Source of the DNA: Myxococcales bacterium
Lineage (GTDB): Bacteria > Myxococcota > UBA727 > JABDBI01
DNA length: 64,000 bases
Assembly (NCBI GenBank): GCA_023898405.1
Contig: CP060221.1
Location: forward strand, 1,719,381-1,783,380
Direction of reading: 5' to 3'
Shown: positions 10,496-39,452 of the stretch, piece by piece
Position numbering within the stretch: the stretch's first letter is position 1
Layout: each line of letters opens with the position of its first letter
Position numbers and translations under genes: made by a program
The notes under the pieces: model-generated
What the model was told of the DNA's origin: nothing
Seen by the model: the letters and a program-made list of their open reading frames with translations, nothing else
The model's database searches: none

Positions 10496-11413
10496 ATGAA
10501 AAATATAATAATTTTAACATGTTCGATCTGGTTTGCAACAAGTATTGCGTATGCAACCCAGATTAATTTTAAATTTATTGGTTTTGAACAATTTAGCAAA
10601 AATCCAGCACATAAGATTCTGGAAGTTAATTGTTCGAATAATACAACTACAACCATTGGAGATTTAAAAGAACAATTTTTTTATAGTTATAACATATCTC
10701 CTAGTGAAACCATTATCCTTATTGCCCACGAGAAATTAGAGGATTCAGCCCTTGTTTCAAGTGTAAACATAGCTATGCAAGGTGAAGTAATGGTTGTTAG
10801 GGATACAAGTGGCGGTATAAATTGTTTTAGTGAACACTATTCCAAACTTAAATCCGCTATTGAGGCTAATAATATAATCTACGCTGAAAATCTCTCACAT
10901 TCGATCGAACGTTCTCCAAATTTTTCAGACACTGAAAAGCGAATTGCAAAGAAATTGACTGAAAATCTATTGAAAATTAATAATAATTCAAACAATGAAT
11001 CGCCTGATGATGAATTAAGTAGGCTTTTGAATTTTATAGAGAAAAAAAATGTCATCAATTTAGATCCTGCTTTGCAAAAAATCTACAATAATTTTAAGCT
11101 CTGTATCGAGTATAGAAACGTTCAATCAGCTAAAACCATTATTAATTCAGCTAAAAATAATAAGTCCTTTTCCATTGAACAAAAAATAGAAATTGAAAGT
11201 TGGATGAATGGCAGCATTATTGAAAATAATTCAAACTTCCAGCCGCTCACTGAAAAAAATAAAACACAAATATTGTTAGAAAAATTTAATGATTTGAAAG
11301 AGAATAAAAGCAATGTTGATGAAGCAATCGATATTGCCTTACAGCTTTTAGATCAAGATGACTTAAACCTTATGGAAATGGAGAAGATTCGGGATTGGAT
11401 TAATTCAATCTAA
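10496..11413 (+). CDS. Hypothetical secreted protein
   Basis: 305-aa ORF with a signal-peptide-like N-terminus (MKNIIILTCSIWFATSIAYA), Asn/Ser-rich, no recognisable domain. Confidence 0.5.
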   Translation: MKNIIILTCSIWFATSIAYATQINFKFIGFEQFSKNPAHKILEVNCSNNTTTTIGDLKEQFFYSYNISPSETIILIAHEKLEDSALVSSVNIAMQGEVMVVRDTSGGINCFSEHYSKLKSAIEANNIIYAENLSHSIERSPNFSDTEKRIAKKLTENLLKINNNSNNESPDDELSRLLNFIEKKNVINLDPALQKIYNNFKLCIEYRNVQSAKTIINSAKNNKSFSIEQKIEIESWMNGSIIENNSNFQPLTEKNKTQILLEKFNDLKENKSNVDEAIDIALQLLDQDDLNLMEMEKIRDWINSI

Positions 11414-11800: not shown

Positions 11801-13685
11801 TAAATCATGATTCAGACAATATAAAATTTCCTTAGCGTACGTTTCCGTCCTAGCCTGAAAAAAATTTGTTCTCTTCTTCTAGACATTTACGACTGTGCTT
11901 ACTGCATAGTCCCCCCGGCCTGACGGTCGGGGGAGCGCTTAGAAATTATAATTTTTTAAAAAAATTCCAATCAAGGAGTCAGCAAACTCAAGGTTTAATT
12001 ACTTATAGTCGCCGTGAAATTTCTTAACCAAAACTTCCTTACGCATTATTATTGTTGTTATTGCCTTTATTGGATGAATGAATAATAACAATGTTTTCGC
12101 TTTCCGAAGCCTTCTCGCGCTTATCAAATAAATAACGAAGACGCTTCAACATTTCTGGTTTTTCAATTAAAACATTTTTTCCCATTGATACAAAATTATG
12201 CATTTTTTCCATCGCCGAGTGCCAATTAATTTCTGGATGAGCAGATATCACAGGATATTTTTTCCAGGATTGATGGAATTCTACTAGATTTTTTTGCAGG
12301 TCAACGGGAATAGTTGTCCATATCAGCACAAATTCTCTGGCAATCCTTAGAGCAAGAGCCTCTATATTTTTTTGAACTGATTTTTCTCTTACGATTCGAT
12401 GTATTACTGACTCTCCCCCATCATTTTGGTCTTGCAACAATTTCAATAGTGATTCTTCATCGGTATTAAAAATAGAATTAATCTGCTTTTCTGATAGCTG
12501 GTAAAGGACACTGTTTAAGATAATTAGCAGCTCTTCTATTAATACCCATTTAAGATCCTTATTAACAAACATCTGCAACACATTATAGCCAACTTCGTTT
12601 TTAGTAACTGATAGATTGTTTAACGATTGTTCAATAGACTCAGCATTATTTAAGTGTTCTGACATTGACTCAAAAAGTTGAGCTTTCTCTTCTTCTGACA
12701 ATTCATATGCCGCACTAATCGCTTTTTTTACTTTATTTTCAAATAGAAAAAACAAATAGCTCGCCATTTCATTTCTTGATATTTCATCTTGATTATTCAG
12801 TGCTATTCCAATTGGCCGAACATAGTTATCAAGAGAAAATAGATATGCCATTCCTGGCAATACACCATTGGCCTCAAAGCTCTCCAATATCTCTTGACGC
12901 TGGCCCTCTAGAAAGACTTTAACGACGTCAATTTTTCCCATACCGACTGCAATGGAAATAACAGAATTGCGATTTTGATCTTCTGCTGTTACATCAGCGC
13001 CATTATCCAAAAGAATTCGTACAATTTCTTGATCATCATTCGATCCATTTTTAAAATTAAGGACTGCAAATCCAAGCGGCGTTATACCTGATTTGCTAGG
13101 TTCATTAATGTTGAAATATTTTTTATTTCGATCATTTAAAAGTAATTCCATTGCGCGTTTTTGTTTTTTTAACGCAGTAAAATGAAGTGCGCTTAATCCC
13201 TTGTCAGTAGTTTTGGCACCGATATCAATTTTCGTATTGAGCAACAACAGCTGCAATTTATCTGTATCACTAAGCCCAGATGCTATGTGGATAGGACGAA
13301 TACCATTCTTTTGTATTGCTAAGTTGACATCAGCACCAACACTAATCAAGTGATTAGCGTAATAGTCATCATCTATTGTAAGTGCGTAATGCAGTAGTGA
13401 ATATCCCGCTAATGGGCTGTTTAGAACCTGTAGGAATTTTTCTTGATTGAATTTTGTTTCAATATAGTCAACCAATTTCTTGAACTCATTTTTCCTATTC
13501 TCTTTGATTGAGTAAAAAAGCACTTCTACATTGCTACTATTTTCGTTAGTCGGATCAAAAATGGTTTCTGGCCGATCCAGCAGATATTTCATAAGCTCCC
13601 AGCTTCCTGTTCTCATAGCTAAAAGCAATAATGTTTTGTCACATAGTTGAGGGCTTAAATTCTCAGGAGCACCTATTTTTTTGTT

Positions 13686-15562: not shown

Positions 15563-16007
15563 ATGAACAATTTTGCCGAATGCCTTAGTTCTCCTAGTCT
15601 GAGTCGGCTGAGTGAACTTCTTGCTGCAAGAATTATCACCATCGAAAAAACTACAGTCACGAACTTATCAAGGGTATTCGGCTTCGATCCCTACAACAGT
15701 CCCTGGCATCACCTATTTTCACGCTATCGAATCTCGCTTTGGGCATTATCATTTGTTCTTATAAAGTTGATTCGAAAGACTTTTGTTGCAGATGGACAAG
15801 CACGTTTTTGTTGTCGATGACACAAGGTGCTTGCATAACGGCAAAATTGTTTTTGGCAAGGCAAAGCATCGTGATGCCGCACGCTCATCTCATGCTGTTA
15901 CCACTTTGCTATGGGGACATACTCAAAATGCTCTTGAGCATAAGATTTTATCTTTGGAAGCCTCACCTATTTCAAAACAGTTTCTAAAGCTCATGATTGG
16001 TAATTAA
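15563..16007 (+). pseudogene. Possible degraded DDE transposase remnant (IS701/IS4-like), frameshifted
   Basis: Two overlapping short ORFs in different frames (15563..15820, 15783..16007); the second contains HVFVVDDTRCLHNGKIVFGKAKH resembling the first catalytic Asp region of IS701/IS4-type transposases. Weak. Confidence 0.3.
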
Positions 16008-17207
16008 CTTAAGGGCTTTCTGATATTCCGCGCTTTGTTTGGTGATCTCGGCTGCCTGCAACAAGAGATCTATAGTCTTTTCGGTTGTACTATCGAGTTC
16101 GGTAATTTCGGGATAGTTGGCATTATCAAGCAGGGTTTGAATGCGAATATAATGGGAACCTGGCAGGGATTCAAAGATATTTTCCATAGCTCCTTCGTCT
16201 TCATTTGATGAACCATCTATTAGGGCATCTATTACAGCTGGAGCCCATGTTGCCGCTCCAGCATTGAGTAAGCTTGAACCATTATGACTGTTGAGAACTC
16301 CCTTGCCAGTTCCAATAGAGACAAGAACAATCCCTCGACGTAAAATCTCAGCTCGGCCGAAAATCCTTTCAGCTTTGTCAAAAGCTAAAGGAGCAGGATT
16401 ATTTTTGTAGATGCCGCCATCTATGAGAAATGCTTGGTAAGGCCGATTGTTTGAGTTTATGAGAGTTACTTCCTTGGGAATAAAAAAGGTGGGTGCCGCC
16501 GAAGTGGCGCGTGCAACTTCAAGCACATTAAGGTGTGAAAATTTGGCATTATCACTTTCCAAAGAAATACCTTGTTTTTCTTCTATAGAAAAAGTTGTGA
16601 GTAAAGTTGGTATGAGAGATTCAGAAAAAAGTTTTTTGCCAAAAGTTTTCTGTATGAGTGCTTCCATGGACAAAGCATCATAGAGGGGTCCTCGCAAACT
16701 GCAGACGGTTTTAGGTATTAAATTTGAACAGCTGTATTTAAAAATTAAACGAGCATTATCTTTATAAAATTTTTCAGCCTCTTTTACCGTCAGTGGCAGC
16801 TTGTCTTTTGAAAGAGGCATGGTGAGCAGTAAGGAGAGTAATCCTCCTGTAGATGTTCCTGCAATAAGATCAAAGAGCTCGTATATTCTTTTATCAGAGA
16901 CCTGTTCAAACTTTTGTAAGAGTCTTGCAAGAAGAACGCCGCGTATACCTCCACCATCAAGGCTTAATACCTTTATTGGGTTTAGTTTTTGGTTTTCGTA
17001 ATTTTCATCGGGAGCTTCAAGTCCTTCAGTCTCGTTTGCGATAGGTTTTTCAACAGGTGTGAACTTTTTAACTTCTTGGCTGCTTTTAGAGCCGTTTTTA
17101 GGCTGATCGACAAAGGAGTTGGGGGCATCACTGCATGATGAAACGATAAGAGTTTGAAATAAAAAACAGGATAAAAAAACTGTGAAAAATAAATTATTTG
17201 ATTTCAT
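15984..17207 (-). CDS. Patatin-like phospholipase, secreted/lipoprotein
   Basis: 407 aa; oxyanion motif LDGGGIRG, nucleophile motif AGTSTGG, catalytic Asp motif IDGGIYKNNP; N-terminal signal peptide with a lipobox-like LIVSSCS. Confidence 0.85.
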   Translation of the reverse strand: MKSNNLFFTVFLSCFLFQTLIVSSCSDAPNSFVDQPKNGSKSSQEVKKFTPVEKPIANETEGLEAPDENYENQKLNPIKVLSLDGGGIRGVLLARLLQKFEQVSDKRIYELFDLIAGTSTGGLLSLLLTMPLSKDKLPLTVKEAEKFYKDNARLIFKYSCSNLIPKTVCSLRGPLYDALSMEALIQKTFGKKLFSESLIPTLLTTFSIEEKQGISLESDNAKFSHLNVLEVARATSAAPTFFIPKEVTLINSNNRPYQAFLIDGGIYKNNPAPLAFDKAERIFGRAEILRRGIVLVSIGTGKGVLNSHNGSSLLNAGAATWAPAVIDALIDGSSNEDEGAMENIFESLPGSHYIRIQTLLDNANYPEITELDSTTEKTIDLLLQAAEITKQSAEYQKALKLITNHEL

Positions 17208-17531: not shown

Positions 17532-18755
17532 ATGAACAATTCCAATTCCCTCCAACTTAAAAGAGTAATCACTCTTTATGCTATGGGTTTTTTGTTGATT
17601 TTTGGCTATTCTTTTGCTCGGCCTTGTATCGATTCCATTTACCTTGAGCATTATTCCAGTGACACATTGCCAAATGCTTGGTTGCTTACGGCTTTTTTGT
17701 CCGCGTTCGTAATAGCCATTTATAATCGTATCAATCAGCGATATTCGATTCTCTCGCTTTATGGTTGGCTTTCCCTTCTCTGTGCAGGAAGTTTGGCTCT
17801 ACTTTTGGCTGCCTATTTTTGGGGTTTCATTCCTGCAATTTTTATTCTCTATGTCTGGAAAGAAATTTACATGGTGGTTTTGGTCGAAACCTATTGGAGT
17901 TTTGCTGACATGGTTTTTTCCATAAGTTCAGCTCGTCACACCTATGGTTTGGCTATGGCCGTCAGTTCGCTTGGTGGGGTATTTGGCAATTTAATTGTAG
18001 GTCCTTTTGCGCGAACTGTCGGATCAAGATGGGCCCTTTGGTCATTGGTATTTTTGCTGATATTAGGATTTTTTATTGCCTATTGCGCGCGATCCATTGG
18101 CGATGAAAAACCACAAGAATCTAAAAAAACTGCAAAGATGGGAGTTGGCATTAAGACCTTGCTTCAGAGCAGGTATTTGGTTCCTCTGGCTTTGTTGGTG
18201 TGCACAGTTCAGGTAGTGACGGGCTTAATCGATTTTAAATTCAACTCGATGTTGCAGGAAAATTACGTCAATACGGATATGCGCACTGAAATGCTTGGCT
18301 ATATTCATGCAACGGTAAATGTTGTGGGGATTGCTATTCAATTGTGTACCGGCCCGATACTCAAGTTATTCGGTATTGCTTCGACTTTTAAGAGTATTCC
18401 TTTTCTATTGGCGGCCTGTCTTTTGGCATTTGTGATTCTGCCTAAATTTGCTTTGATGTTGGCGGTGAAAATTAGTAGTAAGGCTTTGGATTATTCTTTG
18501 TTGAGGGGAGTTAAAGAAATTTTATATATTCCCCTGTCTCGAGAAGAAAAAACCCAGGGCAAGGGGATAATAGATATTTTTATCTATCGTATAGCCAAAG
18601 GTCTTTCTTCGATTTTACTGCTCAGCTTGATTGCCATTGGTTTGAGTGCATATGTTATAGAGCTGTCTTTTGCTTTGGTTGTTATCTGGTTGATACTTGC
18701 CATCGTTATTGCTCGACGCTATCAATTATTGGTGGGTGCTGACGAAAATAGGTGA
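17532..18755 (+). CDS. TLC-family (ATP:ADP antiporter / nucleotide transporter-like) membrane protein, putative
   Basis: 407 aa polytopic membrane protein; C-terminal region KALDYSLLRGVKEILYIPLSREEKTQGKGIIDIFIYRIAKG resembles the TLC/NTT signature (AYIPLD...KGKAAIDVVGGRLGKSG). Shorter than canonical ~500-aa NTTs; substrate unknown. Confidence 0.5.
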   Translation: MNNSNSLQLKRVITLYAMGFLLIFGYSFARPCIDSIYLEHYSSDTLPNAWLLTAFLSAFVIAIYNRINQRYSILSLYGWLSLLCAGSLALLLAAYFWGFIPAIFILYVWKEIYMVVLVETYWSFADMVFSISSARHTYGLAMAVSSLGGVFGNLIVGPFARTVGSRWALWSLVFLLILGFFIAYCARSIGDEKPQESKKTAKMGVGIKTLLQSRYLVPLALLVCTVQVVTGLIDFKFNSMLQENYVNTDMRTEMLGYIHATVNVVGIAIQLCTGPILKLFGIASTFKSIPFLLAACLLAFVILPKFALMLAVKISSKALDYSLLRGVKEILYIPLSREEKTQGKGIIDIFIYRIAKGLSSILLLSLIAIGLSAYVIELSFALVVIWLILAIVIARRYQLLVGADENR

Positions 18756-22006: not shown

Positions 22007-22425
22007 TTTTGAGTCAATCCTGGTTAGTCTAATCACCCAAAAAAAGCAGTCGAGTGGCCATCATGAATTAATGGTAATGAGGAGATATTCACTTCATATA
22101 AAGGAAGTTTTTTAAAGACTAAGTTTCTTATTGAGAGAGGAGCGACATTGAGCCGACAATTTTAAAAATTATTTTTATGTATTATTTTTTATGGTGAAAA
22201 AAGTGAGTATGAGTTACCAAAAAAACAGTCATAATAGCAGTTTTTGTTTTTATGCGATTTTAGTGGGAATATTATTTAAAATAAATAAGCATTTTCTGGT
22301 GTAAAAATATTCCTTTAATTATAGCTGTAAAAGTTAAATCTTCAATATTTTTGGAAATTAGTCCGATAAATTAGATAATGAATAAGAAGCGCTGCGTAAA
22401 GCATATATAACCTGTGGGGAGTGTA

Positions 22426-24102
22426 ATGAAAAGACCTTCAACATATCCTGGAAGAATAGCTCTTTCGGCTATTCTGACCTCTATAATATTGTTGCTCGCC
22501 AATCAAGCAATAGCTAAAGAATATATAGTAAAATTGAAAAATCATCCCCTGCAATATAGTTTCGATTATCTGGCAAGTTCAACAAATAATACTTACAAAG
22601 TAAATGGCATAGCTGAGGATATGGGCCTTATCAAGGTTGATGCCAAAGTTGATGAAAATTCTGAAGATGCTCAGTTGAAATTAAAAAAATATTTTGACGC
22701 TGAATATGTTGTACCCAACGTAAAACTGCATGCTTTTATCGATGATTCTGATCCAAGAAGAGCTGAACAATGGGCTTTGGACGTTATACATGCTGCTGAT
22801 GCATGGAATATTTCGCCAGGCAGTAAATCAGTAGTTGTAGCTGTGATCGATACAGGTGTTGATATGACGCATGAGGATCTAAAAGGCAACATTTGGGAAA
22901 ATCCAGGTGAGATAGCTGGCAATAAGGTCGATGATGACAACAACGGTTATATCGATGATGTTCATGGCTGGGATTTTTTTGCTAAAGATAAAGATCCAAC
23001 AGATGAAACTGGCGGACAAAATCCAGGTCATGGCACTCATTGCTCAGGTATTGTTGGGGCTTTATGTGGCAATGGTTTGGGTGTGTGTGGAATTAGTCCT
23101 GTCGTATCAATAATGCCTTTGCGTTTTTTGGATAAAAATGGTTCTGGGGACCTGTTTGATTCCGTAAAAGCTATCGAATACGCCATGAATAACGGAGCTC
23201 ATATTATCAGTGCTAGCTGGGGAGCAAATATTGACCGCTCAGGTGCTCAGCCAATCATTGATGCAATTCAAAAAGCTGAAGAAAAAGGTCTAATTTTTGT
23301 TGTGGCAGCATCAAACGATGGCAAGTCCAATGATACGACTGAGGTATATCCTGCAAATGCGCAAACACCAAACATAATCTCAGTAGCAGCTTCTAACAGC
23401 AACGATCAAAAACCGTCATGGTCAAATTATGGACGCAAAGTTGATCTTGCGGCACCCGGTGAAAATATTTTAAGCACAGTGCCAGGAGGTTATGAAGAAC
23501 TGTCTGGAACCTCAATGGCAACTCCATATGTTGCTGGTCTAGTAGCATTGATGAAATCTTTGGATATTAGTCTTACTGGAGCGCAAGCTCGATCTATTTT
23601 GCAAAGCACTGGAGCAAAGGTAGACATTCAAACAGCAAGCAATACCAGAATTGATGCGAAAAATGCTCTACAAGCTGTGGCGAGCCAAAGTCTAACGGTA
23701 GTGCCAGCAGCAGCTACGTTCAAAGTTAACGATGAATTTGATTTTGCTGCATGGGGTGGTGTTGGACCCTATACTTTTAGCTCAGATAATTCAGACATAG
23801 CATCGGTCGATGAGCAGGGGCATTTAGTTGCTAAAGCTTTAGGAAGTGTCATCATCAATGTAAGTGATAGTGCGGGAAATACGGCCCGGTCGGTAAGTGT
23901 AGAAATAAGTGATGGCTCAGGCGGCGGAGGAGGTAGCGGCGACTGTCCTTTCGGTAACGATTTCATGTGCCAAATCATGTGTCTCTTCGATCCAAGTCAG
24001 TCTTGGTGCCAAGGCGGTGGCGGTGGCGGTGGTGGTTTGCCATTCCCTATTCCAGGTTTGCCAGGTCTACCAGGACTCCCAGGTATGCCCGGAAATATCT
24101 AA
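22426..24102 (+). CDS. Subtilisin-like serine protease (S8 family), secreted
   Basis: Catalytic triad motifs AVIDTGVD (Asp), HGTHCSGIVGA (His), GTSMATPYVAGLVALM (Ser); signal peptide; C-terminal Gly-rich and PGLPG-repeat tail. ATG at 22426 with GGGAG RBS (ORF track begins at GTG 22414). Confidence 0.9.
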   Translation: MKRPSTYPGRIALSAILTSIILLLANQAIAKEYIVKLKNHPLQYSFDYLASSTNNTYKVNGIAEDMGLIKVDAKVDENSEDAQLKLKKYFDAEYVVPNVKLHAFIDDSDPRRAEQWALDVIHAADAWNISPGSKSVVVAVIDTGVDMTHEDLKGNIWENPGEIAGNKVDDDNNGYIDDVHGWDFFAKDKDPTDETGGQNPGHGTHCSGIVGALCGNGLGVCGISPVVSIMPLRFLDKNGSGDLFDSVKAIEYAMNNGAHIISASWGANIDRSGAQPIIDAIQKAEEKGLIFVVAASNDGKSNDTTEVYPANAQTPNIISVAASNSNDQKPSWSNYGRKVDLAAPGENILSTVPGGYEELSGTSMATPYVAGLVALMKSLDISLTGAQARSILQSTGAKVDIQTASNTRIDAKNALQAVASQSLTVVPAAATFKVNDEFDFAAWGGVGPYTFSSDNSDIASVDEQGHLVAKALGSVIINVSDSAGNTARSVSVEISDGSGGGGGSGDCPFGNDFMCQIMCLFDPSQSWCQGGGGGGGGLPFPIPGLPGLPGLPGMPGNI

Positions 24103-25719: not shown

Positions 25720-26358
25720 GGTAGTGCGTCAAATTTGTTGAACTATTTTTCTTCTCTCCTTTCTTAAATAAATTGAGTTTGTTCTTAAACAAGATTTGAA
25801 GGAAGGCCATGACTGTTTACCTGCCACTGGAATGCCCGAGCTGTAAAGACACAAAATCCGTTGTTAAATTTGGCAAGAGCTCTAACAGCAAGCAACGCTA
25901 CTGCTGTCAAAATGATAAATGCGATAGGAAAACTTTCATTGTCCGCTATGACAATAAGGGATGGCTTGCAGAAATTAGAGAAAAGATCCTTGATATGGCT
26001 ATGAATGGGGCAGGAATTAGAGATACATCGCGAGTGCTCTGCGTCTCCCAGAAAACTGTGATGTCCACATTAAAAAAAAGGCTGTGCGCTCACCCAATTG
26101 GAATCGAACATTACTTCACTGACGGCTGGGGCGGGTACGAAAGACACATCTCATCGAAACATCTTTCTATTGGGAAAGAAAACACCCAAAAGATCGAACG
26201 AAAACATTTAACTCTGCGAACAAGGATAAAGCGACTGGGGCGCAAAACTATTTGTTTTTCTAAGTCTGAAACCATGCATGACATTGTGCTTGGCTTGTTT
26301 ATAAATAGATATGAATTTGGGATCGCAATTTAGAATTCAACAAATTTGCCGCACTACC
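25720..26358 (+). mobile_element. IS1-family element, short (639 bp), probably internally deleted
   Basis: 23-bp terminal inverted repeats GGTAGTGCGTCAAATTTGTTGAA (25720..25742) and TTCAACAAATTTGCCGCACTACC (26336..26358), one mismatch, with the GGTA(A/G)TGC start typical of IS1. No target duplication evident. Confidence 0.7.
25809..26333 (+). CDS. IS1-family transposase (InsA-like zinc finger/HTH fused to C-terminal InsB-like region)
   Basis: 174 aa: N-terminus CPSCKDTKSVVKFGKSSNSKQRYCCQNDKC and ILDMAMNGAGIRDTSRVL (InsA-like); C-terminus FTDGWGGYER...TQKIERKHLTLRTRIKRLGRKTICFSKS (InsB-like). The region carrying the first catalytic Asp of InsB appears absent. Confidence 0.75.
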   Translation: MTVYLPLECPSCKDTKSVVKFGKSSNSKQRYCCQNDKCDRKTFIVRYDNKGWLAEIREKILDMAMNGAGIRDTSRVLCVSQKTVMSTLKKRLCAHPIGIEHYFTDGWGGYERHISSKHLSIGKENTQKIERKHLTLRTRIKRLGRKTICFSKSETMHDIVLGLFINRYEFGIAI

Positions 26359-26680
26359 GGCTAAATCAGCCATTGATTTAAGTTCAACAGATTGCTTTAA
26401 CGGGGCCCAATGCTGGGCCCTTCATATTTATACATAGCATCAATGAACAATGAAAATGCACAAGGATGTCAACTAAAGCAAAAATTATTCTTCGTTTACA
26501 TCAGAAAAACTTTTTACTCTTGCTTTTGCTGCTTGATCACGTTTATTTTTGTTGCATTAACATATCTCATTTTTTACTCAAAAGTTGAATCAAATAATTT
26601 TGGTTGAGAACTAAACTACTTGGTTTTTCCATGGGTAAAAGCAAAAAAGAGATAAAGAATTTTATTCTTTAGGGGGAGCT

Positions 26681-28243
26681 ATGAACACACAATTTATCTT
26701 GTGGTCATCTATTTTATCCATTTTTTTTTCTTTTCTCGTACATGCTGAGAAGAGCCTTAGTTTTGAGCCGGATCATTATATTAGCTATGATATCAAGGCG
26801 AGAAATGGCCATTGGCAGATGGTTAATTTAAGAGACCAGTTTTTGGAGCCGACTGATTTTTTGGTTAGGGGGCCGATCAAGTATTTGAATCCCACTCTCA
26901 AAAGACACAATAATCAGGTTTTTGAGATAAAAAATAAAAAGCTTCATTATGCTGCATACGAAGTATTTCCTGAATCCAATTATGACATCAATGAAACGGT
27001 TGTGGTTCATAATCAATTTGGCAGCTTTACTTTTGATGCTTTCAAGCCCAGCAGATTACTTGTGCCATCGATTAAGTCGCATATTTTTAAAGGTAAAAAA
27101 GATCGAAAAATTCTTGAAAACAGTGACCACTACCTTTGTTACGATATAAAACCTGAGCTGATTGTAACTGAGGGCGGATATTTGAAAGATGAATTTAGAG
27201 GAAGATCTTTTGATACCTTGATTGCAAAAAGATTATGCAATCCCGTAGCCAAACGACATGACGATAAATATTTTGACATAATAAATGATGTTGAGACGAA
27301 CCATTTGATGTGTTTTGAGCTCAGTAAAAAAAGAATCTTTCGTCTACTGCACTTCAAAAATCAATTTGGATTTAGATTTGCTGCTGCACTGAATGATGAA
27401 GAGCTATGTGTGCCTTCGACTAAAATAAAAATCAGAAAAAAATGCGAAGATCAAGTACCTGATTCCGCAGGTATATGCGGAGGCGACTGCCCTGTTGCAA
27501 CCGACTTATGTATTTATATTCCTGAAACCAATGAGTGTGGTTGTGCTCCAGAACAACCGCGATTTTGTGAAGACAATACACCAGATCCTCTTGGTGTATG
27601 CGGCGGAGATTGCCCCGATAATCTTGAATGTATAGCAGATCTAGCAAATCAAAGCTGTTATTGCAAAGAACCACCTAATCCATGTGGTTTAAATGCTGAT
27701 GGTCTGTGCGGAGGCGACTGCCCTGTTGCAACCGACTTATGTATTTATATTTCTGAAACCAATGAGTGTGGTTGTGCTCCAGAGCAACCGCGATTTTGTG
27801 AAGATAATACACCAGATCCTCTTGGTGTATGCGGCGGAGATTGCCCCGATAATCTTGAATGCATAGCAGATCTTAGCAGTCAAAGCTGTTATTGCAAAGA
27901 ACCACCTAATCCATGTGGTTTAAATGCTGACGGTCAGTGCGGAGGCGACTGCTTAGTTGCAAGTGAGATCTGTAGCTTTATTCCAGGAACAAATGAATGC
28001 GGTTGTGCTCCACAAGAACCATTGTTGTGTGAAGATAGTATTCCTGATTCAACCGGAATATGCGGCGGAGAATGTCCAAATAATTCAATATGCGCTCCCG
28101 ATTCAGTCAATCAAAAATGTTTTTGCCGACCGGTAATAGAAAGTTGTGGATTAAATGCCGAAGGTTTGTGTGGAGGAGATTGTTTAGATCCGAGTCAGAG
28201 CTGCACATTTATAATTGGTGCAGATATCTGCGCATGTCTCTAA
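26681..28243 (+). CDS. Secreted Cys-rich tandem-repeat protein (hypothetical)
   Basis: 520 aa; signal peptide; N-terminal half has two related ~110-aa segments (DHYISYDIKARNG... / DHYLCYDIKPELIV...); C-terminal half is 3.5 tandem 77-aa Cys-rich units built on a CGGDCP...C...NxCxC module. RBS AGGGGGAG upstream. Confidence 0.7.
   Translation: MNTQFILWSSILSIFFSFLVHAEKSLSFEPDHYISYDIKARNGHWQMVNLRDQFLEPTDFLVRGPIKYLNPTLKRHNNQVFEIKNKKLHYAAYEVFPESNYDINETVVVHNQFGSFTFDAFKPSRLLVPSIKSHIFKGKKDRKILENSDHYLCYDIKPELIVTEGGYLKDEFRGRSFDTLIAKRLCNPVAKRHDDKYFDIINDVETNHLMCFELSKKRIFRLLHFKNQFGFRFAAALNDEELCVPSTKIKIRKKCEDQVPDSAGICGGDCPVATDLCIYIPETNECGCAPEQPRFCEDNTPDPLGVCGGDCPDNLECIADLANQSCYCKEPPNPCGLNADGLCGGDCPVATDLCIYISETNECGCAPEQPRFCEDNTPDPLGVCGGDCPDNLECIADLSSQSCYCKEPPNPCGLNADGQCGGDCLVASEICSFIPGTNECGCAPQEPLLCEDSIPDSTGICGGECPNNSICAPDSVNQKCFCRPVIESCGLNAEGLCGGDCLDPSQSCTFIIGADICACL
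27466..28158 (+). repeat. Three in-frame 231-bp tandem repeats (units 1 and 2 about 96% identical, unit 3 diverged) inside CDS 26681..28243
   Basis: GCGGAGGCGACTGCC recurs at 27477, 27708 and 27939 (period 231 bp); units 1 and 2 differ at about 9 positions. Confidence 0.85.
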
Positions 28244-28370
28244 GTAAAATATAAATTGCTGAGAGGGCTTTAAAAATGATTTTTAGGGCCCTTTCTCAAT
28301 TACTCACCCAAAAGATCTAACTTTTTGTGGCATATTTTACTCAACATGATTGTTATTGGAGACGGGACTA

Positions 28371-28404
28371 AAAAAAGATTCCTAAGTACTTAGGAATCTT
28401 TTTT
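28371..28404. terminator. Bidirectional rho-independent terminator
   Basis: A-tract, perfect palindrome AGATTCCTAAGT/ACTTAGGAATCT, then T-tract (AAAAAAGATTCCTAAGTACTTAGGAATCTTTTTT). Confidence 0.65.
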
Positions 28405-28632
28405 GAAACCAAAGGTAGTACTTTAGCTGTAAAATTTCGTGAGTGAAAATTATCTATTCGAGAGCTTTGTGAGTAAATCCATCCATAGATTACGTGTCAA
28501 TAAGTGCACTCATGAGATAATACTTGAGGCCAATGATACTCTGCTTGGTGTTTTGCGATATCGTCTTGACTTGATTGGCACCAAGCAAGGATGTGACAAA
28601 GGTGACTGTGGAGCATGTACGGTGCTTCTTAA

Positions 28633-29537
28633 GAGGCTGTAAAAAAAATCAAATCTCAGGTGGTAAGCCAATTTTCCAATCGTCTGATACATAATCTTGC
28701 ATTAGCGATGTAGTTCATTGATTCCTGATGCTTTGTATTCTTCTCATAGTTACGCACCAGACGCCTATTTCGATTCAGCCAAGCAAAAGTTCGTTCTACG
28801 GCCCAACGAAATATTTGTGGTACAAACCCCTTTTGCCCTTTTAAACGTTCCGCAGTTTCTGTGCTTACGCCTACTCTCAAGCCTGAAGACAAATTCTTAT
28901 ATGCGTTATCTCCAAGAATCTTCGCTAATCTGGGAAACTTCTCGCGCTTATTGAGCTCAGTAACCAATTCCTCGCCGGCAACCCTATCAGATACATTTGC
29001 TGCGGTACAAATGCATAGGAGCATCAATCCCATCGTATCAACAACGATGTGGCGCTTTCTTCCATTAATCTTCTTTCCCCCATCCAAACCACGCTCATCT
29101 ACTCCTGGTTCCGCTGTCTGTGATTGGGAGTCGATGGAAACAAGTGAGGGGCTTGCATCTCTGCCAGCACAGGTTCTGACTATTGCCACGAGAATGCAGT
29201 TTAAGACCGCCCACAAACCAGAAACAGACCAGGTGCGAAAATAGTGATAGACAATACCGTGAGGAGGAAAGTCATTGGGTAAACAACGCCACACACAGCC
29301 GTTCTTTAAAACATAGAATATGGCATCAACTATGCTCCGAAAGCTATAGACACGACGTCTGCCTCGTTTGGCGTTAGCAGGAAAAAGTGGCTCAATCACT
29401 TCCCAGGCACAATCTGACAAACAGGTCTCATACAAGCACGACATGATATTTCCTTTCAAAAAGGTTTTCACGTCATACTTTCGTCACAGCGACATTTATT
29501 GAACCAGAATTGCCAAATTGATTTTTTTTACAGCCTC
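28633..29537 (-). mobile_element. IS5-family insertion sequence (IS1031-like, ~905 bp), apparently intact
   Basis: Perfect 20-bp terminal inverted repeats GAGGCTGTAAAAAAAATCAA (28633..28652 and reverse complement at 29518..29537), flanked by a 3-bp direct repeat TAA (28630..28632 and 29538..29540). Single transposase ORF. Confidence 0.9.
28656..29471 (-). CDS. IS5-family DDE transposase
   Basis: 271-aa ORF filling the element, with conserved C-terminal block AERLKGQKGFVPQIFRWAVERTFAWLNRNRRLVRNYEK shared with the remnant at 11514..11777. Confidence 0.9.
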   Translation of the reverse strand: MKTFLKGNIMSCLYETCLSDCAWEVIEPLFPANAKRGRRRVYSFRSIVDAIFYVLKNGCVWRCLPNDFPPHGIVYHYFRTWSVSGLWAVLNCILVAIVRTCAGRDASPSLVSIDSQSQTAEPGVDERGLDGGKKINGRKRHIVVDTMGLMLLCICTAANVSDRVAGEELVTELNKREKFPRLAKILGDNAYKNLSSGLRVGVSTETAERLKGQKGFVPQIFRWAVERTFAWLNRNRRLVRNYEKNTKHQESMNYIANARLCIRRLENWLTT

Positions 29538-29903
29538 TAATGGAAAACCTGTTTTATCGTGTCTTACGCTTGCTCAATTAATAAATGACTCGGATGATAT
29601 TTCTACTATCGAAAGCCTAGCAGAGAACAAAGGAATAGATATTTTGCTCGAAGCTTTTGAAGAGTGTGGCGCTTTGCAGTGCGGTTTTTGTCAGCCAGGA
29701 ATGATTTTATCGGCTAAAGCTTTACTCAGTAAAAATCATGCGCCTAGTCTTGAAGAAATTCGCCAAGCACTAAGCGGCAACCTATGCAGATGTACTGGCT
29801 ATAGTAAAATCTACATGGCAGTTATGGCAGCCGTATTGGTGAAAAACAAAAAAGTAGATTCACTCAAAGAAGCGATTGCTCAGCTAAAAAACGAAAATTA
29901 TCT

Positions 29904-32282
29904 ATGAACAGCATTTTTTCCCATGGAACGACCATCAAAGAGAGTATTCAAACGCATAAGCATCCTGATTTTGGTGTAGGGCACTCACGTAAAAAAATAG
30001 ATGCATTAGAAAAATTATTGGGGCGCACTCGTTATACCGATGATATTTCTTTACCAGGTATGCTTTTTGGTAAAATTGTACGAAGTCCCCATGCTCACGC
30101 GAGAATTATCAGTATCGATACATCGAGTATTTTGGATATGCCGGGTGTGGTGGATGTGATCATTGGGGCAGATATGCCTATTAAATATGGCGTGATTCCT
30201 TGGACCAAAGATGAATATCCCTTGGCGGTGGGAAAAACACGTTATGTTGGTGACGCTGTAGCTGCAGTTATCGCTCACAGTGAAAGCATCGCTTATGAAG
30301 CAGGGTTGAAATTGAAAGTAGAGTATGAGGTGTTACCAAGTATTCTGACGATAGCTCAGGCCAAAGTTACAGACGCACTACAAGTCAATGAACGGGCGAA
30401 AATAGGAAATATCACCAAGCATGTTGATTTAAGTTTTGGAAGTGTTGAAGAAAATTTGGCTCAAGCCGACGTAGTTATGAAAGAAAATTTTTCTTTTCAC
30501 AATACGACGCATGCTCCTATTGAGCCACACTGCGCTATTGGAAATTGCGATACTAATGGACGACTGACAGTTTATTCATCTACTCAAGTACCTCATTACT
30601 TGCACCGAACTTTATCTGAAGTACTAGATGTACCTGCTCATCAGATTCGTGTTATTCAACCTCCGCTGGGCGGTGCTTTTGGTGGTAAGAGTGAACCTTT
30701 TGATCTTGAGTTTGTAGTTGCGCTAGCATCGATGCGTTTGAAAAAGCCGGTAAAGATTCTCTATACGCGAGAAGAAGTATTTTTTGCTCATCGGGGTCGA
30801 CATCCTATGGATATAACAATGACCATGGGAGTAAAAAATAATGGCGAAATTATTGCGCTAAAAAATAATATTGAAATAGATGGTGGTGCCTATGCTTCGT
30901 TTGGCATGATTACTGCATTTTATGCTGGTCAATTGCTTTGTGGTCCGGTAGGAATGAAGAGCTATCAATTTTCATCGACTCGGTATTATACCAACAAACC
31001 AGCATGTGGCCCTAAACGAGGACATGGATCAGTGCAACCGCGTTTTGCTTTTGAAATAATGTGCGATATGGCGGCGGAAAAATTAAACATGGATCCCATT
31101 CAATTTCGCCTTATCAATGCTGTTAGCCCTGAATCTACAACTGTGAATGGTCAGCAGGTAGGAAGTTTAGGGCTTGAAGAGGTACTTTCGGAAGTAGCGC
31201 ATGCTTCTCAATGGACTGAGCGAAAAAAATTTTCTTACGGTCGTGGGCTTGGTGTGGCATGCAGCATGTATATCAGCGGTACTAATTATCCCGTTTACCC
31301 AAACGATATGCCTCAATCTTCAGTCTCTATTCGTTTTGATCGCTGTGGAGCACTGCATATTTTCAGCGGTGCGTCTGATATCGGACAAGGAGCAGCCACT
31401 GTGCTCGCTCAAATAGCGCAAGAAGAACTTGGTATTAATGGCGATAGAATCTGTGTTACCACTGCTGATACTGATCTTACTCCTGTAGATTTGGGAGCTT
31501 ATTCGAGCCGGGTGACTATGATGATGGGTCATGCAGCTATGGAGGCCTTTCGAAAAGCGCGTCATAAAATTTCTCAAGCTGTTGCTAAAAAATTGGGTGA
31601 ACGATTCTCAAAAGAGATTGATGATAGTGATTTAGTTTTTTCTAATGAGAGAATATTCCTCAAGGATGCTCCAGAAATATCTATGAGCTTTAACGATGCA
31701 CTCGTGTATTCGGAGTCCCTTTTTGGTTCTTTAGTTTTTAGCGGCGACTATCGGACGGTTGAACGTGGGGGAGACTATCGAGGAGGAAGCATTGGTGCAT
31801 CACCCGCCTATTCTTGTACGGCTCACATTGCAGATGTCAGTGTGGATACGAACACAGGAAAAATTAGCATCAATAAAATTTATGTAGCGCATGATTGTGG
31901 TCGCGCCATCAATCCACTTTTAGTTGAGGGGCAAATAGAGGGAAGCACCTACATGGGGGCCGCTGAAGTTGTACTTGAACAATTTATTGTGGATGAAGAA
32001 GAGGGGGCTCGTAAAGGAATGTTGATCGGTCCAAGTTTGCTCGACTACCGTATTCCTACAACGCTTGATACGCCACCGATACATTCGATCATTGTAGAAA
32101 AACCAGATAAAAATGGTCCATATGGTGCCAAAGAAGCAGGAGAAGGTCCTCTTCATAGCGCTATCCCTGCTGTAGCAAATGCTATTTATGCGGCTGTTGG
32201 GGTGAGATTGACTTCTCTTCCGTTTTCACCAGCACGAATCTTAGACGCTCTTAAAAAAAAAGGTGAGCCATGCTGCCCTTGA
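29904..32282 (+). CDS. Xanthine dehydrogenase-family molybdopterin-binding large subunit (aldehyde oxidase/CoxL-like)
   Basis: 792 aa with large-subunit motifs (PLGGAFGGK, GQGAATVLAQIAQEELG, VAHDCGRAINPLLVEGQIEG, GAKEAGEGPL). Start overlaps the small-subunit stop. Confidence 0.9.
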   Translation: MNSIFSHGTTIKESIQTHKHPDFGVGHSRKKIDALEKLLGRTRYTDDISLPGMLFGKIVRSPHAHARIISIDTSSILDMPGVVDVIIGADMPIKYGVIPWTKDEYPLAVGKTRYVGDAVAAVIAHSESIAYEAGLKLKVEYEVLPSILTIAQAKVTDALQVNERAKIGNITKHVDLSFGSVEENLAQADVVMKENFSFHNTTHAPIEPHCAIGNCDTNGRLTVYSSTQVPHYLHRTLSEVLDVPAHQIRVIQPPLGGAFGGKSEPFDLEFVVALASMRLKKPVKILYTREEVFFAHRGRHPMDITMTMGVKNNGEIIALKNNIEIDGGAYASFGMITAFYAGQLLCGPVGMKSYQFSSTRYYTNKPACGPKRGHGSVQPRFAFEIMCDMAAEKLNMDPIQFRLINAVSPESTTVNGQQVGSLGLEEVLSEVAHASQWTERKKFSYGRGLGVACSMYISGTNYPVYPNDMPQSSVSIRFDRCGALHIFSGASDIGQGAATVLAQIAQEELGINGDRICVTTADTDLTPVDLGAYSSRVTMMMGHAAMEAFRKARHKISQAVAKKLGERFSKEIDDSDLVFSNERIFLKDAPEISMSFNDALVYSESLFGSLVFSGDYRTVERGGDYRGGSIGASPAYSCTAHIADVSVDTNTGKISINKIYVAHDCGRAINPLLVEGQIEGSTYMGAAEVVLEQFIVDEEEGARKGMLIGPSLLDYRIPTTLDTPPIHSIIVEKPDKNGPYGAKEAGEGPLHSAIPAVANAIYAAVGVRLTSLPFSPARILDALKKKGEPCCP

Positions 32283-38268: not shown

Positions 38269-38958
38269 ATGCGATTATTTTTGGCTTTGATTTTATACGG
38301 ACTAATATTTTCATCTTGCAGGCAGCAACTACCAGTAAATCAAAAAATTCCTTCTCAGGCTGATACAACAAAGGTAGATGCTCAAAAGACTCAACGTCGC
38401 ATGCTTTTTTCCATTGATGAGGGAAAGCATGTGCATGGTGATCCCAATGCTCGTGTTCCCGTAGTGGTTTTTATTGACTACTTAAGTGCCCATAGTGCAC
38501 GTAGTTTTCGTGTTTTAAAGGAGTTGTTAGCCGATCAGCAACTTAAGCTTATTATACGTATTTCGTTTCGCCATTATCCTAGAGGACAAGAGAGTATCAA
38601 AGCGGCCAAGGCAGCCCTAGCGTCAGGTTTGCAAGGCAAACATTTTTTTTGGCGCATGTCACAAAAATTGTTTGATGCTGATGGCGAAATAGATGACTCC
38701 ATTTACATCAAAGCAGCACAAGAAATAGGACTCGATAGCCAGCGCTTTAGCCAAGATATGCTTGAAAACGAAAGCAAATTTATGCACCTATTGAGGAGTG
38801 ATGCTACTACAATGCGCAAGGTGAGAAATGTTGCCAAAGTAGGTGAAATTTTTGTGGGAGGTCATATTTATCGGGGACCAATGAAGCGAGCAAGCTTAAA
38901 ACGATTTATTATGGCGGTTAAAAATTATAACGAACGTGCAATCAGTCCAAGTTCGTAG
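38269..38958 (+). CDS. DsbA-like thioredoxin-fold lipoprotein lacking the CxxC active site (putative)
   Basis: 229 aa; lipobox LIFSSC; position expected for CxxC reads FIDYLSAHSARSF (Ser-Ala-His-Ser at 38485..38496). Fold assignment by pattern only. Confidence 0.45.
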   Translation: MRLFLALILYGLIFSSCRQQLPVNQKIPSQADTTKVDAQKTQRRMLFSIDEGKHVHGDPNARVPVVVFIDYLSAHSARSFRVLKELLADQQLKLIIRISFRHYPRGQESIKAAKAALASGLQGKHFFWRMSQKLFDADGEIDDSIYIKAAQEIGLDSQRFSQDMLENESKFMHLLRSDATTMRKVRNVAKVGEIFVGGHIYRGPMKRASLKRFIMAVKNYNERAISPSS

Positions 38959-39019: not shown

Positions 39020-39452
39020 ATTGTCGTAGAAAAGTAATAAGCCGGGTTCTGTCCGCGCTGTCATTGCTGAACAGCGATGGATGGACATTCATCTGGGAGC
39101 ATTGTTGCCAATGCCCTCGAGCGGTCTCCTTAGAAATCTATCACGCGGGCAGCGTGTGGAACTTTCGTCCCAGATTTCCCCATGACCTTTCACCGGGTGG
39201 GGTTTACCGTGCCGCATTTGTCTCCAAATGCGCGGTGTGCTCTTACCACACCGTTTCACCCTTTCCGCTTGGTGATCCGATACCCAGAGGAGACGAAACA
39301 TCGGTCGCAAGTATCGGCATAGCGGAGGTTTATTTTCTGTGACACTATCCTTCAAGTCGCCTTGACCGGCTGTTAGCCGGCACCGCGCCCTATGGTGCCC
39401 GGACTTTCCTCCAAGTGCAAATGCACTCAGCGTCCACCTCTTTTTCTACGGC
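39020..39452 (-). ncRNA. rnpB: RNase P RNA, bacterial type A
   Basis: Minus-strand sequence carries the universal blocks GGAGGAAAGTCCGGGCACCATAGGGC, GGGTGAAACGGTGTGGTAAGAGCACACCG, GGCACGGTAAACCCCACCCGG and ACAGAACCCGGCTTAT; P1 pairing CGTAGAAAAAG (5') with CTTTTCTACG (3') sets the ends. Boundaries +/- 10 nt. Confidence 0.9.

Follow-up and report, generated by a model that had tools for sequence, protein, structure and literature searches.

A putatively secreted bacterial protein with tandem modules predicted to form miniature growth-factor-type cystine knots

Overall Architecture

The gene studied here lies in a 64,000-nucleotide stretch of a Myxococcales bacterium genome (contig CP060221.1, positions 1,719,381 to 1,783,380; hereafter the window). 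The open reading frame (ORF) occupies positions 26681–28243 of the forward strand, begins with ATG, and encodes a protein of 520 amino acids. The protein consists of a predicted signal peptide, a tandem pair of DUF7450 domains, and an array of seven six-cysteine modules. Each of these modules is most likely a miniature cystine knot of the growth-factor type, as judged from sequence signature and structure prediction. What is new is the predicted occurrence of this motif in miniaturised form, tandemly arrayed, and in a bacterium. The gene is already deposited: the product is GenBank USN50184.1 (H6731_07905; same length and cluster), a ‘hypothetical protein’ of a Myxococcales bacterium metagenome-assembled genome (MAG), encoded on a closed contig of 2,515,055 bp.

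A Shine-Dalgarno-like sequence read from the DNA (AGGGGGAG; 26671–26678, forward strand) is located immediately 5' of the ATG. The predicted Sec signal peptide (MNTQFILWSSILSIFFSFLVHA, ending just before EK; 26681–26746, forward strand) combines a hydrophobic core with a VHA cleavage motif, and hydrophobic leaders open the sequences of homologs as well, which suggests that the 520-amino acid protein is exported. No lipobox cysteine follows the leader, and no anchor domain was detected in Pfam or NCBIfam scans of the protein. At the other end, the protein terminates in ...CACL directly after module 7. The two halves differ strongly in charge. The DUF7450 head is basic, with an isoelectric point (pI) of 9.2, and the array is acidic (pI 4.05; 45 D/E versus 7 K/R), with 42 cysteines in 267 amino acids.

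The Cysteine Modules

The array (amino acids 255–519; nucleotides 27443–28237) is composed of seven modules that follow the pattern C-x7-10-C-G-G-x-C-[PL]-x4-5-C-x7-9-C-x-C. Each module is 31–34 amino acids in length and has six cysteines, and linkers of 6–7 residues connect the modules. As defined by this pattern, and all on the forward strand, module 1 (CEDQVPDSAGICGGDCPVATDLCIYIPETNECGC) is located at 27443–27544, module 2 (CEDNTPDPLGVCGGDCPDNLECIADLANQSCYC) at 27566–27664, module 3 (CGLNADGLCGGDCPVATDLCIYISETNECGC) at 27683–27775, module 4 at 27797–27895, module 5 at 27914–28006, module 6 at 28028–28126, and module 7 at 28145–28237, with a single residue after the last CxC ending the protein. 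Modules 2, 4, and 6 are of a B type, which has a 10-residue first loop (‘CEDxxPDxxGxCGG’), and alternate with modules 3, 5, and 7 of an A type, which has a 7-residue first loop (‘CGLNAxGxCGG’). The CxGxC ... CxC signature is present in all seven.

A first reading of the window from its sequence alone (the original prediction) had proposed a 77-amino acid cysteine-rich module of no recognised family. Seventy-seven amino acids is indeed the repeat period, but the unit of folding is about half as long (~38 amino acids), with one A and one B module, each with six cysteines, per 77 amino acids. The array also begins before the first unit of that reading and ends one residue ahead of the stop codon. 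The cysteine pattern does agree with the suggestion of small disulfide-rich modules.

Across 82 aligned modules, seven columns never vary (C, C, G, C, C, C, and C), giving CxGxC and a terminal CxC. In a hidden Markov model census of 1033 modules from 226 proteins, all six cysteines were aligned in 871 modules, and the glycine of CxGxC was kept in 1007 of 1019. Outside of this cysteine and glycine framework, the loops are poorly conserved. Paired loss of cysteines in degenerate modules, from which disulfides could be deduced, was not found in the census, as practically every module keeps its six cysteines; the apparent losses were due to alignment truncations, longer loops, and fragmentary ORFs.

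The module is uncatalogued. Pfam and NCBIfam scans of the cysteine-rich half, of a 79-amino acid double module, and of single modules gave no match even at E ≤ 10, and the module region of a protein having 21 copies was likewise without any Pfam match. The whole protein had no match to PDB sequences by phmmer. Neither Pfam, NCBIfam, and PDB sequences nor the searchable literature yielded any bacterial domain with a CxGxC/CxC ring, and literature searches on DUF7450, CXGXC, growth factor cystine knot (GFCK), or cystine knot in bacteria or myxobacteria returned no prior description. The failure of the original prediction to recognise the family therefore stands for the cysteine module, while the N-terminal half belongs to a catalogued, uncharacterised Pfam family (see below).

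Predicted Cystine-Knot Fold

CXGXC and CXC together are the established signature of the 8-residue ring of the GFCK (PMC12203953). In a comparison with 177,635 PDB sequences, the best match of the module profile was the knot core of VEGF-A, with a marginal E value of 0.013. In this alignment, ‘CGGxCNDEGLECVPTEESN’ corresponds to the C2–C4 segment of the module and ‘NKCECRP’ to the C5–C6 segment. The AlphaFold model of the C-terminal array has one β-hairpin per module and a predicted local distance difference test score (pLDDT) of 90.8. Its predicted template modelling score (pTM) is 0.41, a value to be expected of a flexible array. The structural neighbors of the model were all cystine knots, with PDGF/VEGF being the best.

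These results indicate that each module is most likely a miniature growth-factor-type cystine knot. In such a knot, two disulfides (C2–C5 and C3–C6) would link C2-x-G-x-C3 to C5-x-C6 in an 8-residue ring, and the C1–C4 disulfide would thread this ring, with the loops of the knot cut down to 7–10, 5–6, and 7–9 residues. We regard the knot as a well-supported prediction rather than a demonstration, and one from which we infer the disulfide connectivity of the real protein. No known family is matched by the module, but a well-known structural motif is.

Cystine-knot growth factors are described in textbooks as an extracellular animal invention. The module shares with VEGF and PDGF the order of the six knot cysteines (C ... 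CxGxC ... C ... CxC), the 8-residue ring signature with its obligatory glycine, and the CIII-x6-CIV spacing. The consensus near the ring is also similar, being CGGxCP..G..CVPD ... CECxP in the module and CGGCCNDEGLECVPT ... CECRP in VEGF-A. However, the module has 31–34 residues as compared to ~90–110 in the growth-factor knots, and the two β-hairpin ‘fingers’ of the latter (~30 residues each) are reduced to 7–10 and 7–9 residues, so that the long fingers characteristic of these proteins are missing. The module also differs from growth-factor knots in having no extra inter-chain cysteines, and in occurring in bacteria, in head-to-tail arrays of up to ~21 copies fused to DUF7450 or lectin-like domains. 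Neither the PDGF/VEGF family (Pfam PDGF) nor other curated knot families gave a profile match to the module. Closer in size is the conotoxin sigmaS-GVIIIA (PDB 9EBE), which has a GFCK ring (CXGXC and CXC) within a ~40-residue peptide (PMC12203953). This conotoxin occurs singly, as a free venom peptide of an animal, and has ten cysteines and five disulfides, whereas the module has six cysteines and is a repeated domain in a large bacterial protein.

The main rival to the knot is a disulfide-rich but unknotted topology, in which the modules would be EGF- or follistatin N-terminal (FOLN)-like hairpins with laddered C2–C4, C3–C5, and C1–C6 disulfides and would form an ordinary spacer array. EGF-like, FOLN, and TNFR modules are like those described here in having ~35–40 amino acids, six cysteines, and a central β-hairpin, and in serving as tandem extracellular spacers. 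EGF and FOLN hairpins are also similar to the module in their spacing (C2-x3-C3-x5-6-C4-x8-9-C5-x-C6 in the latter), and the one β-hairpin in each module bears C4 and C5xC6. A Foldseek search of the cysteine array against the PDB gave nothing significant, with follistatin as the top match, followed by weak matches to EGF, laminin-EGF, furin-like, and TNFR structures. We consider this topology unlikely. No EGF, FOLN, or other Pfam model matched at the permissive threshold given above, and the near-absolutely conserved glycine of CxGxC is required by a threaded 8-residue ring but not by an EGF-like fold. Furthermore, the array opens with C1 and closes just past C6, while in an EGF register CxC would lie mid-module, as C4-x-C5.

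The resemblance to PDGF/VEGF may reflect either homology or convergence. A bolder and distinctly improbable proposal is that the module is an ancient, ‘knot-only’ bacterial member of the GFCK fold that is related to the PDGF/VEGF core by true homology instead of resembling it by convergence. In that case, the GFCK fold would not have originated in animals or other eukaryotes, and in this apparently host-associated bacterium the array might even engage host proteins.

The original prediction had also raised metal binding, for which nothing was found in favor; rather, the CxGxC/CxC signature, the invariant glycine, and the structural neighbors point to a cystine knot. A metallothionein-like periplasmic buffer (of Zn, Cu, Cd, or Fe-S type) having metal in place of disulfides would agree with the very high cysteine density and acidic composition of the array, but is very improbable given that the predicted signal peptide implies an oxidizing compartment and the window has a DsbA-like gene, that each module has exactly six strictly conserved cysteines and no conserved histidine, and that the model reaches high confidence and a compact shape with no metal and has only disulfide knots as structural neighbors.

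If the knot topology is confirmed, the module would constitute a new bacterial domain family of ~200 clusters, its named members coming from MAGs of Myxococcota, Binatia, and Chloroflexota. It would also be the smallest natural six-cysteine GFCK scaffold, of interest for peptide engineering as are knottins and cyclotides, and would raise the question of the origin of the GFCK fold. Should the topology be EGF-like instead, the finding would amount to an unannotated cysteine-rich spacer repeat of modest interest.

Tandem Repeats and Copy Number

Tandem Repeats Finder identified a repeat with a period of 231 bp at 27476–28020 (2.4 copies, score 899). A second repeat search placed three in-frame units on the forward strand at 27470–27700, 27701–27931, and 27932–28162, within 4 nt of the starts that had been proposed for in-frame tandem coding repeats (27466, 27697, and 27928). 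The junction between units 1 and 2 reads AATGCTGATGGTCTG followed by TGCGGAGGCGACTGCCCTGTT. Units 1 and 2 are near-identical, differing at 12 of 231 nucleotides (94.8% identity, as compared to the ~96% of the original prediction), and the third is diverged, differing from either of them at 78 of 231 nucleotides (66% identity). Nine codons differ between units 1 and 2, five of them synonymously, and the ratio of nonsynonymous to synonymous substitution (dN/dS) is 0.24 for this pair and ~0.3 for either unit versus unit 3 (range 0.24–0.35). This low ratio and the synonymous differences argue that the units are genuine coding repeats on which purifying selection acts.

Two short-read assemblies of essentially the same organism, L001 (a European Nucleotide Archive scaffold; ERZ28655569, SAMN08389233) and L005 (GCA_020430645.1), encode a 443-amino acid protein that lacks exactly one 77-amino acid unit. 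L005 is 100% identical to the window across 12.7 kb downstream of the gene, and between the window and other assemblies of the organism there are ~2 differences in 16 kb. Scored at the 12 positions where units 1 and 2 differ, the remaining unit reads 111112222222 in L001 and 112222222222 in L005. Each two-unit form is therefore a hybrid of units 1 and 2 with one clean crossover, which falls in the identical run 27575–27630 in L001 and 27476–27520 in L005. As the hybrids carry exact unit-1 and unit-2 sequence, both parental units must exist, and the two-unit forms derive from a three-unit form. The idea that the near-identical units are an assembly artefact of a truly two-unit gene, which the 443-amino acid protein of the two independent assemblies might suggest, is hardly credible in view of this derivation, of the real divergence between units 1 and 2 (12 sites, five synonymous codon changes, and dN/dS of 0.24), and of the closed 2.5-Mb contig on which the window lies.

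L001 and L005 have the same background, as they share a K-to-R variant and both lack the insertion sequence (IS) found downstream of the gene in the window. Different junctions on one background could have arisen from two independent deletions in vivo or from two assembler paths through a collapsed repeat, and we lean slightly towards collapse. The copy-number variation anticipated by the original prediction is thus plausible but not established between strains: three units are present here and two in the short-read assemblies, but collapse fits the differing junctions at least as well as recombination does. Variation between lineages, on the other hand, is clear. Orthologs with two DUF7450 copies have from 1 to 14 modules; the L008 locus expanded independently by units of 123 bp (one module) that are 98% identical, and the L009 locus has a two-module expansion with a unit of 225 bp. 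The expansion in the window is recent, as had been suggested, in a relative sense only. Units 1 and 2 are 5.2% apart, as compared to the ~2 sites per 16 kb between assemblies of the same organism, which places the duplication long before the strains separated.

The N-Terminal DUF7450 Head

The N-terminal half matches Pfam DUF7450 (PF24247, ‘Repeat of unknown function’) twice, at residues ~28–250; the score is 69.1 bits when the full protein is scanned and 74.5 bits when this half is scanned by itself (gathering cutoff, 27). Copy 1 (26762–27079, forward strand) consists of half-units at 26762–26908 and 26930–27079, and copy 2 (27116–27433, forward strand) of half-units at 27116–27262 and 27290–27433. 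The internal duplication noted earlier for this half of the protein is thus accounted for by two DUF7450 copies, each made up of two half-units of ~50 amino acids with the common motifs HYxCY, DQF(G), and LCxPxxK. Copy 1 has no cysteine, whereas each half-unit of copy 2 has a cysteine pair contributed by HYxCY and LCxPxxK. The occurrence of the pair in half-units 3 and 4 and its absence from 1 and 2 suggest that it forms an optional disulfide within the half-unit.

The AlphaFold model of the N-terminal half is all β (pLDDT 91.2, pTM 0.86). No DUF7450 relative was detected in the PDB by either sequence profile or fold. The invariant residues of the region were established across 22 homologs, and the motifs DHYxCY, DQF, NPxxK, NQFG, and CVPxxK are common to the window protein and more than 80 homologs. 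Other DUF7450 proteins have domains of the kind found in adhesins (PMP repeats, CARDB, Big_5, SpaA-like, and TSP3), and only a subset of DUF7450 proteins has the cysteine module. If the knot topology is confirmed, it would also offer a first foothold, structural and architectural, for understanding DUF7450.

Distribution and Fusion Partners

The module is rare, being found in 205 of 1.84 billion representative proteins by an exhaustive profile search (E ≤ 0.001). All named carriers are ‘hypothetical proteins’ from bacterial MAGs, assigned to Binatia, Limnocylindrales (Chloroflexota), Myxococcales, or an unclassified ‘bacterium’, and no eukaryotic source name occurs among them. A scan of species-representative genome contigs, among which the source genome is not included, yielded only three relatives. 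The module is also present in a locus of higher GC content (L004, 58%).

Most carriers have one or two N-terminal DUF7450-like domains followed by 3–9 modules. A minority has 7–21 modules together with CBM96, Laminin_G_3, DUF11, TSP_3, ZU5, or NHL-propeller domains, or consists of modules alone. Across proteins, the copy number ranges from 1 to ~21. Several module-rich proteins that lack DUF7450 (P0094, P0117, and P0120) have in common a conserved C-terminal domain of ~100 amino acids with no Pfam match and the pattern W..P.....VYR....DxNxDGxxDxYGxC....YLVTGENxxGEGSLG....CP. This domain may serve in sorting or anchoring.

Proposed Function

On balance, we slightly favor the view that the protein is a Sec-exported, disulfide-rich protein with a DUF7450 head on an acidic, knot-stabilized stalk, the length of which changes by unequal recombination. 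The tandem DUF7450 pair (amino acids ~28–250) would be the functional head, binding a ligand or surface. The seven knot modules (amino acids 255–519) would be arranged as beads on a string, providing a rigid spacer that withstands proteases and mechanical force. Adjacent A+B pairs retain similarity in their DNA, which would let unequal homologous recombination add or remove whole 231-bp units in frame, and stalk length would drift between lineages. Both this division of labor and recombination in vivo are ones we infer.

A spacer role is supported by the joining of the same module to other extracellular binding domains (CBM96, Laminin_G_3, DUF11, TSP_3, ZU5, and NHL), by the range of its copy number, and by the strong charge asymmetry between head and array. 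The independent expansions in L008 and L009 and the single-crossover hybrids of L001 and L005 support recombination. Some bacterial surface proteins have stalks with variable numbers of tandem repeats, for example of the Rib/alpha-C type. The protein is like these in having in-frame, near-identical units whose number differs between lineages, as unequal recombination would produce, and unlike them in having only two near-identical units (95%) and no visible wall or membrane anchor, and in that variation between strains is only plausible. As for mechanical strength, one report predicts that cystine-knot proteins withstand stretching unusually well (PMC3592873).

Several points count against a knot-stabilized stalk. 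Artificial intelligence-based predictions of cysteine-rich peptides are unreliable (PMC12203953). AlphaFold may be reproducing a knot learned from the CxGxC/CxC motif. As the six cysteines are never lost in pairs, the sequences provide no independent evidence on connectivity. Neither end of the protein shows a cell anchor, such that a ‘stalk’ presupposes noncovalent attachment or a free secreted protein. The difference between three and two units may be explained by assembler collapse at least as well as by recombination. Lastly, no conserved gene neighborhood was found around the genes of the homologs P0006, P0002, and P0016, and the genomic context offers no functional clue.

Alternatively, the knot modules could be the active part of the protein, as a ligand, decoy, or inhibitor directed at a host or prey, with DUF7450 as the carrier. 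This role would fit an apparently host-associated bacterium. Within 7 kb, the window encodes a homolog of the TLC-family ATP/ADP transporter (17532–18755, forward strand; partial profile coverage), an ankyrin-repeat protein (12039–13628, reverse strand), and a patatin-like phospholipase (15984–17207, reverse strand). Along with the closed, 2.5-Mb, IS-bearing genome of 39% GC, this cluster suggests a host-associated or intracellular, energy-parasitic lineage, which would be an unusual lifestyle for Myxococcota. Small cystine-knot peptides are also often receptor ligands or inhibitors, as exemplified by the GFCK conotoxin (PMC12203953), and the modules are under purifying selection. Nevertheless, an active role is quite unlikely. 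The long ‘finger’ loops that make receptor contacts in growth factors are absent, and the loops are poorly conserved outside the cysteine and glycine framework. The occurrence of up to ~21 copies beside unrelated binding domains is typical of spacers, and the module is also found in Binatia and Limnocylindrales MAGs and at the 58% GC locus.

Genomic Surroundings

The GC content of the gene (39.6%) matches that of the window (39.0%), and the composition bears no mark of a foreign origin. No further copies of the cysteine module or of DUF7450 motifs were found elsewhere in the 64-kb window. Directly upstream is an IS1-family transposase ORF (25809–26333) with an InsA zinc ribbon, a helix-turn-helix, and part of a DDE domain; at 174 amino acids, it appears to be truncated. 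The short-read contigs L001 and L005 start within this ORF (at window positions 26098 and 26243), which fits an IS present in multiple copies. A GC-rich, terminator-like hairpin with a T-rich tail (26402–26421) is situated between this IS1 remnant and the gene, and its position ahead of the gene suggests transcription from a promoter of the gene's own. No sigma-70-like promoter was found in 26300–26680.

Downstream, a stable hairpin (28261–28297, forward strand; -20.8 kcal/mol, z -5.0) is located 18 nt past the stop codon. It is followed by a perfect 34-nt palindrome composed of an A-run, a stem, and a T-run (28371–28404, no strand assigned; -19.2 kcal/mol, z -5.2). The palindrome has the look of a bidirectional intrinsic terminator, and stands between the gene and a downstream oxidoreductase operon. 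This operon is xanthine-dehydrogenase-like, with Fer2, molybdopterin, and FAD subunits. An IS4/IS5-family insertion (28633–29537), whose transposase ORF lies at 28656–29471 on the minus strand, splits the gene of the 2Fe-2S subunit (28439–28642 and 29518–29907) and the operon is probably inactive as a result. The junction is uninterrupted, with 100% identical flanks, in four more assemblies of this organism (L001, L005, L006, and L007), and the insertion is therefore specific to the genome of the window.

Only one neighborhood feature recurs among relatives, namely a DUF7450 paralog beside the ortholog in L008. On this 2.29-Mb contig, the P0006 gene (8001–9521) is directly followed by a 330-amino acid DUF7450 paralog (9732–10724), which indicates that the DUF7450 family can duplicate locally. 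Further upstream in the window (22414–24102, forward strand), a secreted S8 subtilase carries a Big_2 domain and an odd C-terminal tail, in which glycine runs surround a four-cysteine segment (GDCPFGNDFMCQIMCLFDPSQSWC) ahead of PGLPGLPGMPG repeats. This four-cysteine segment is distinct from the six-cysteine module.

A DsbA-like thioredoxin-fold protein is encoded ~10 kb downstream of the gene (38269–38958, forward strand), and in the annotation of L005, more thioredoxin and AhpC-like genes follow it. The products of these genes could oxidize the 46-cysteine protein. Next to the DsbA-like gene, the RNase P RNA (bacterial class A) is located at 39022–39449 on the reverse strand, with a score of 291 bits, and is the sole Rfam match in the window.

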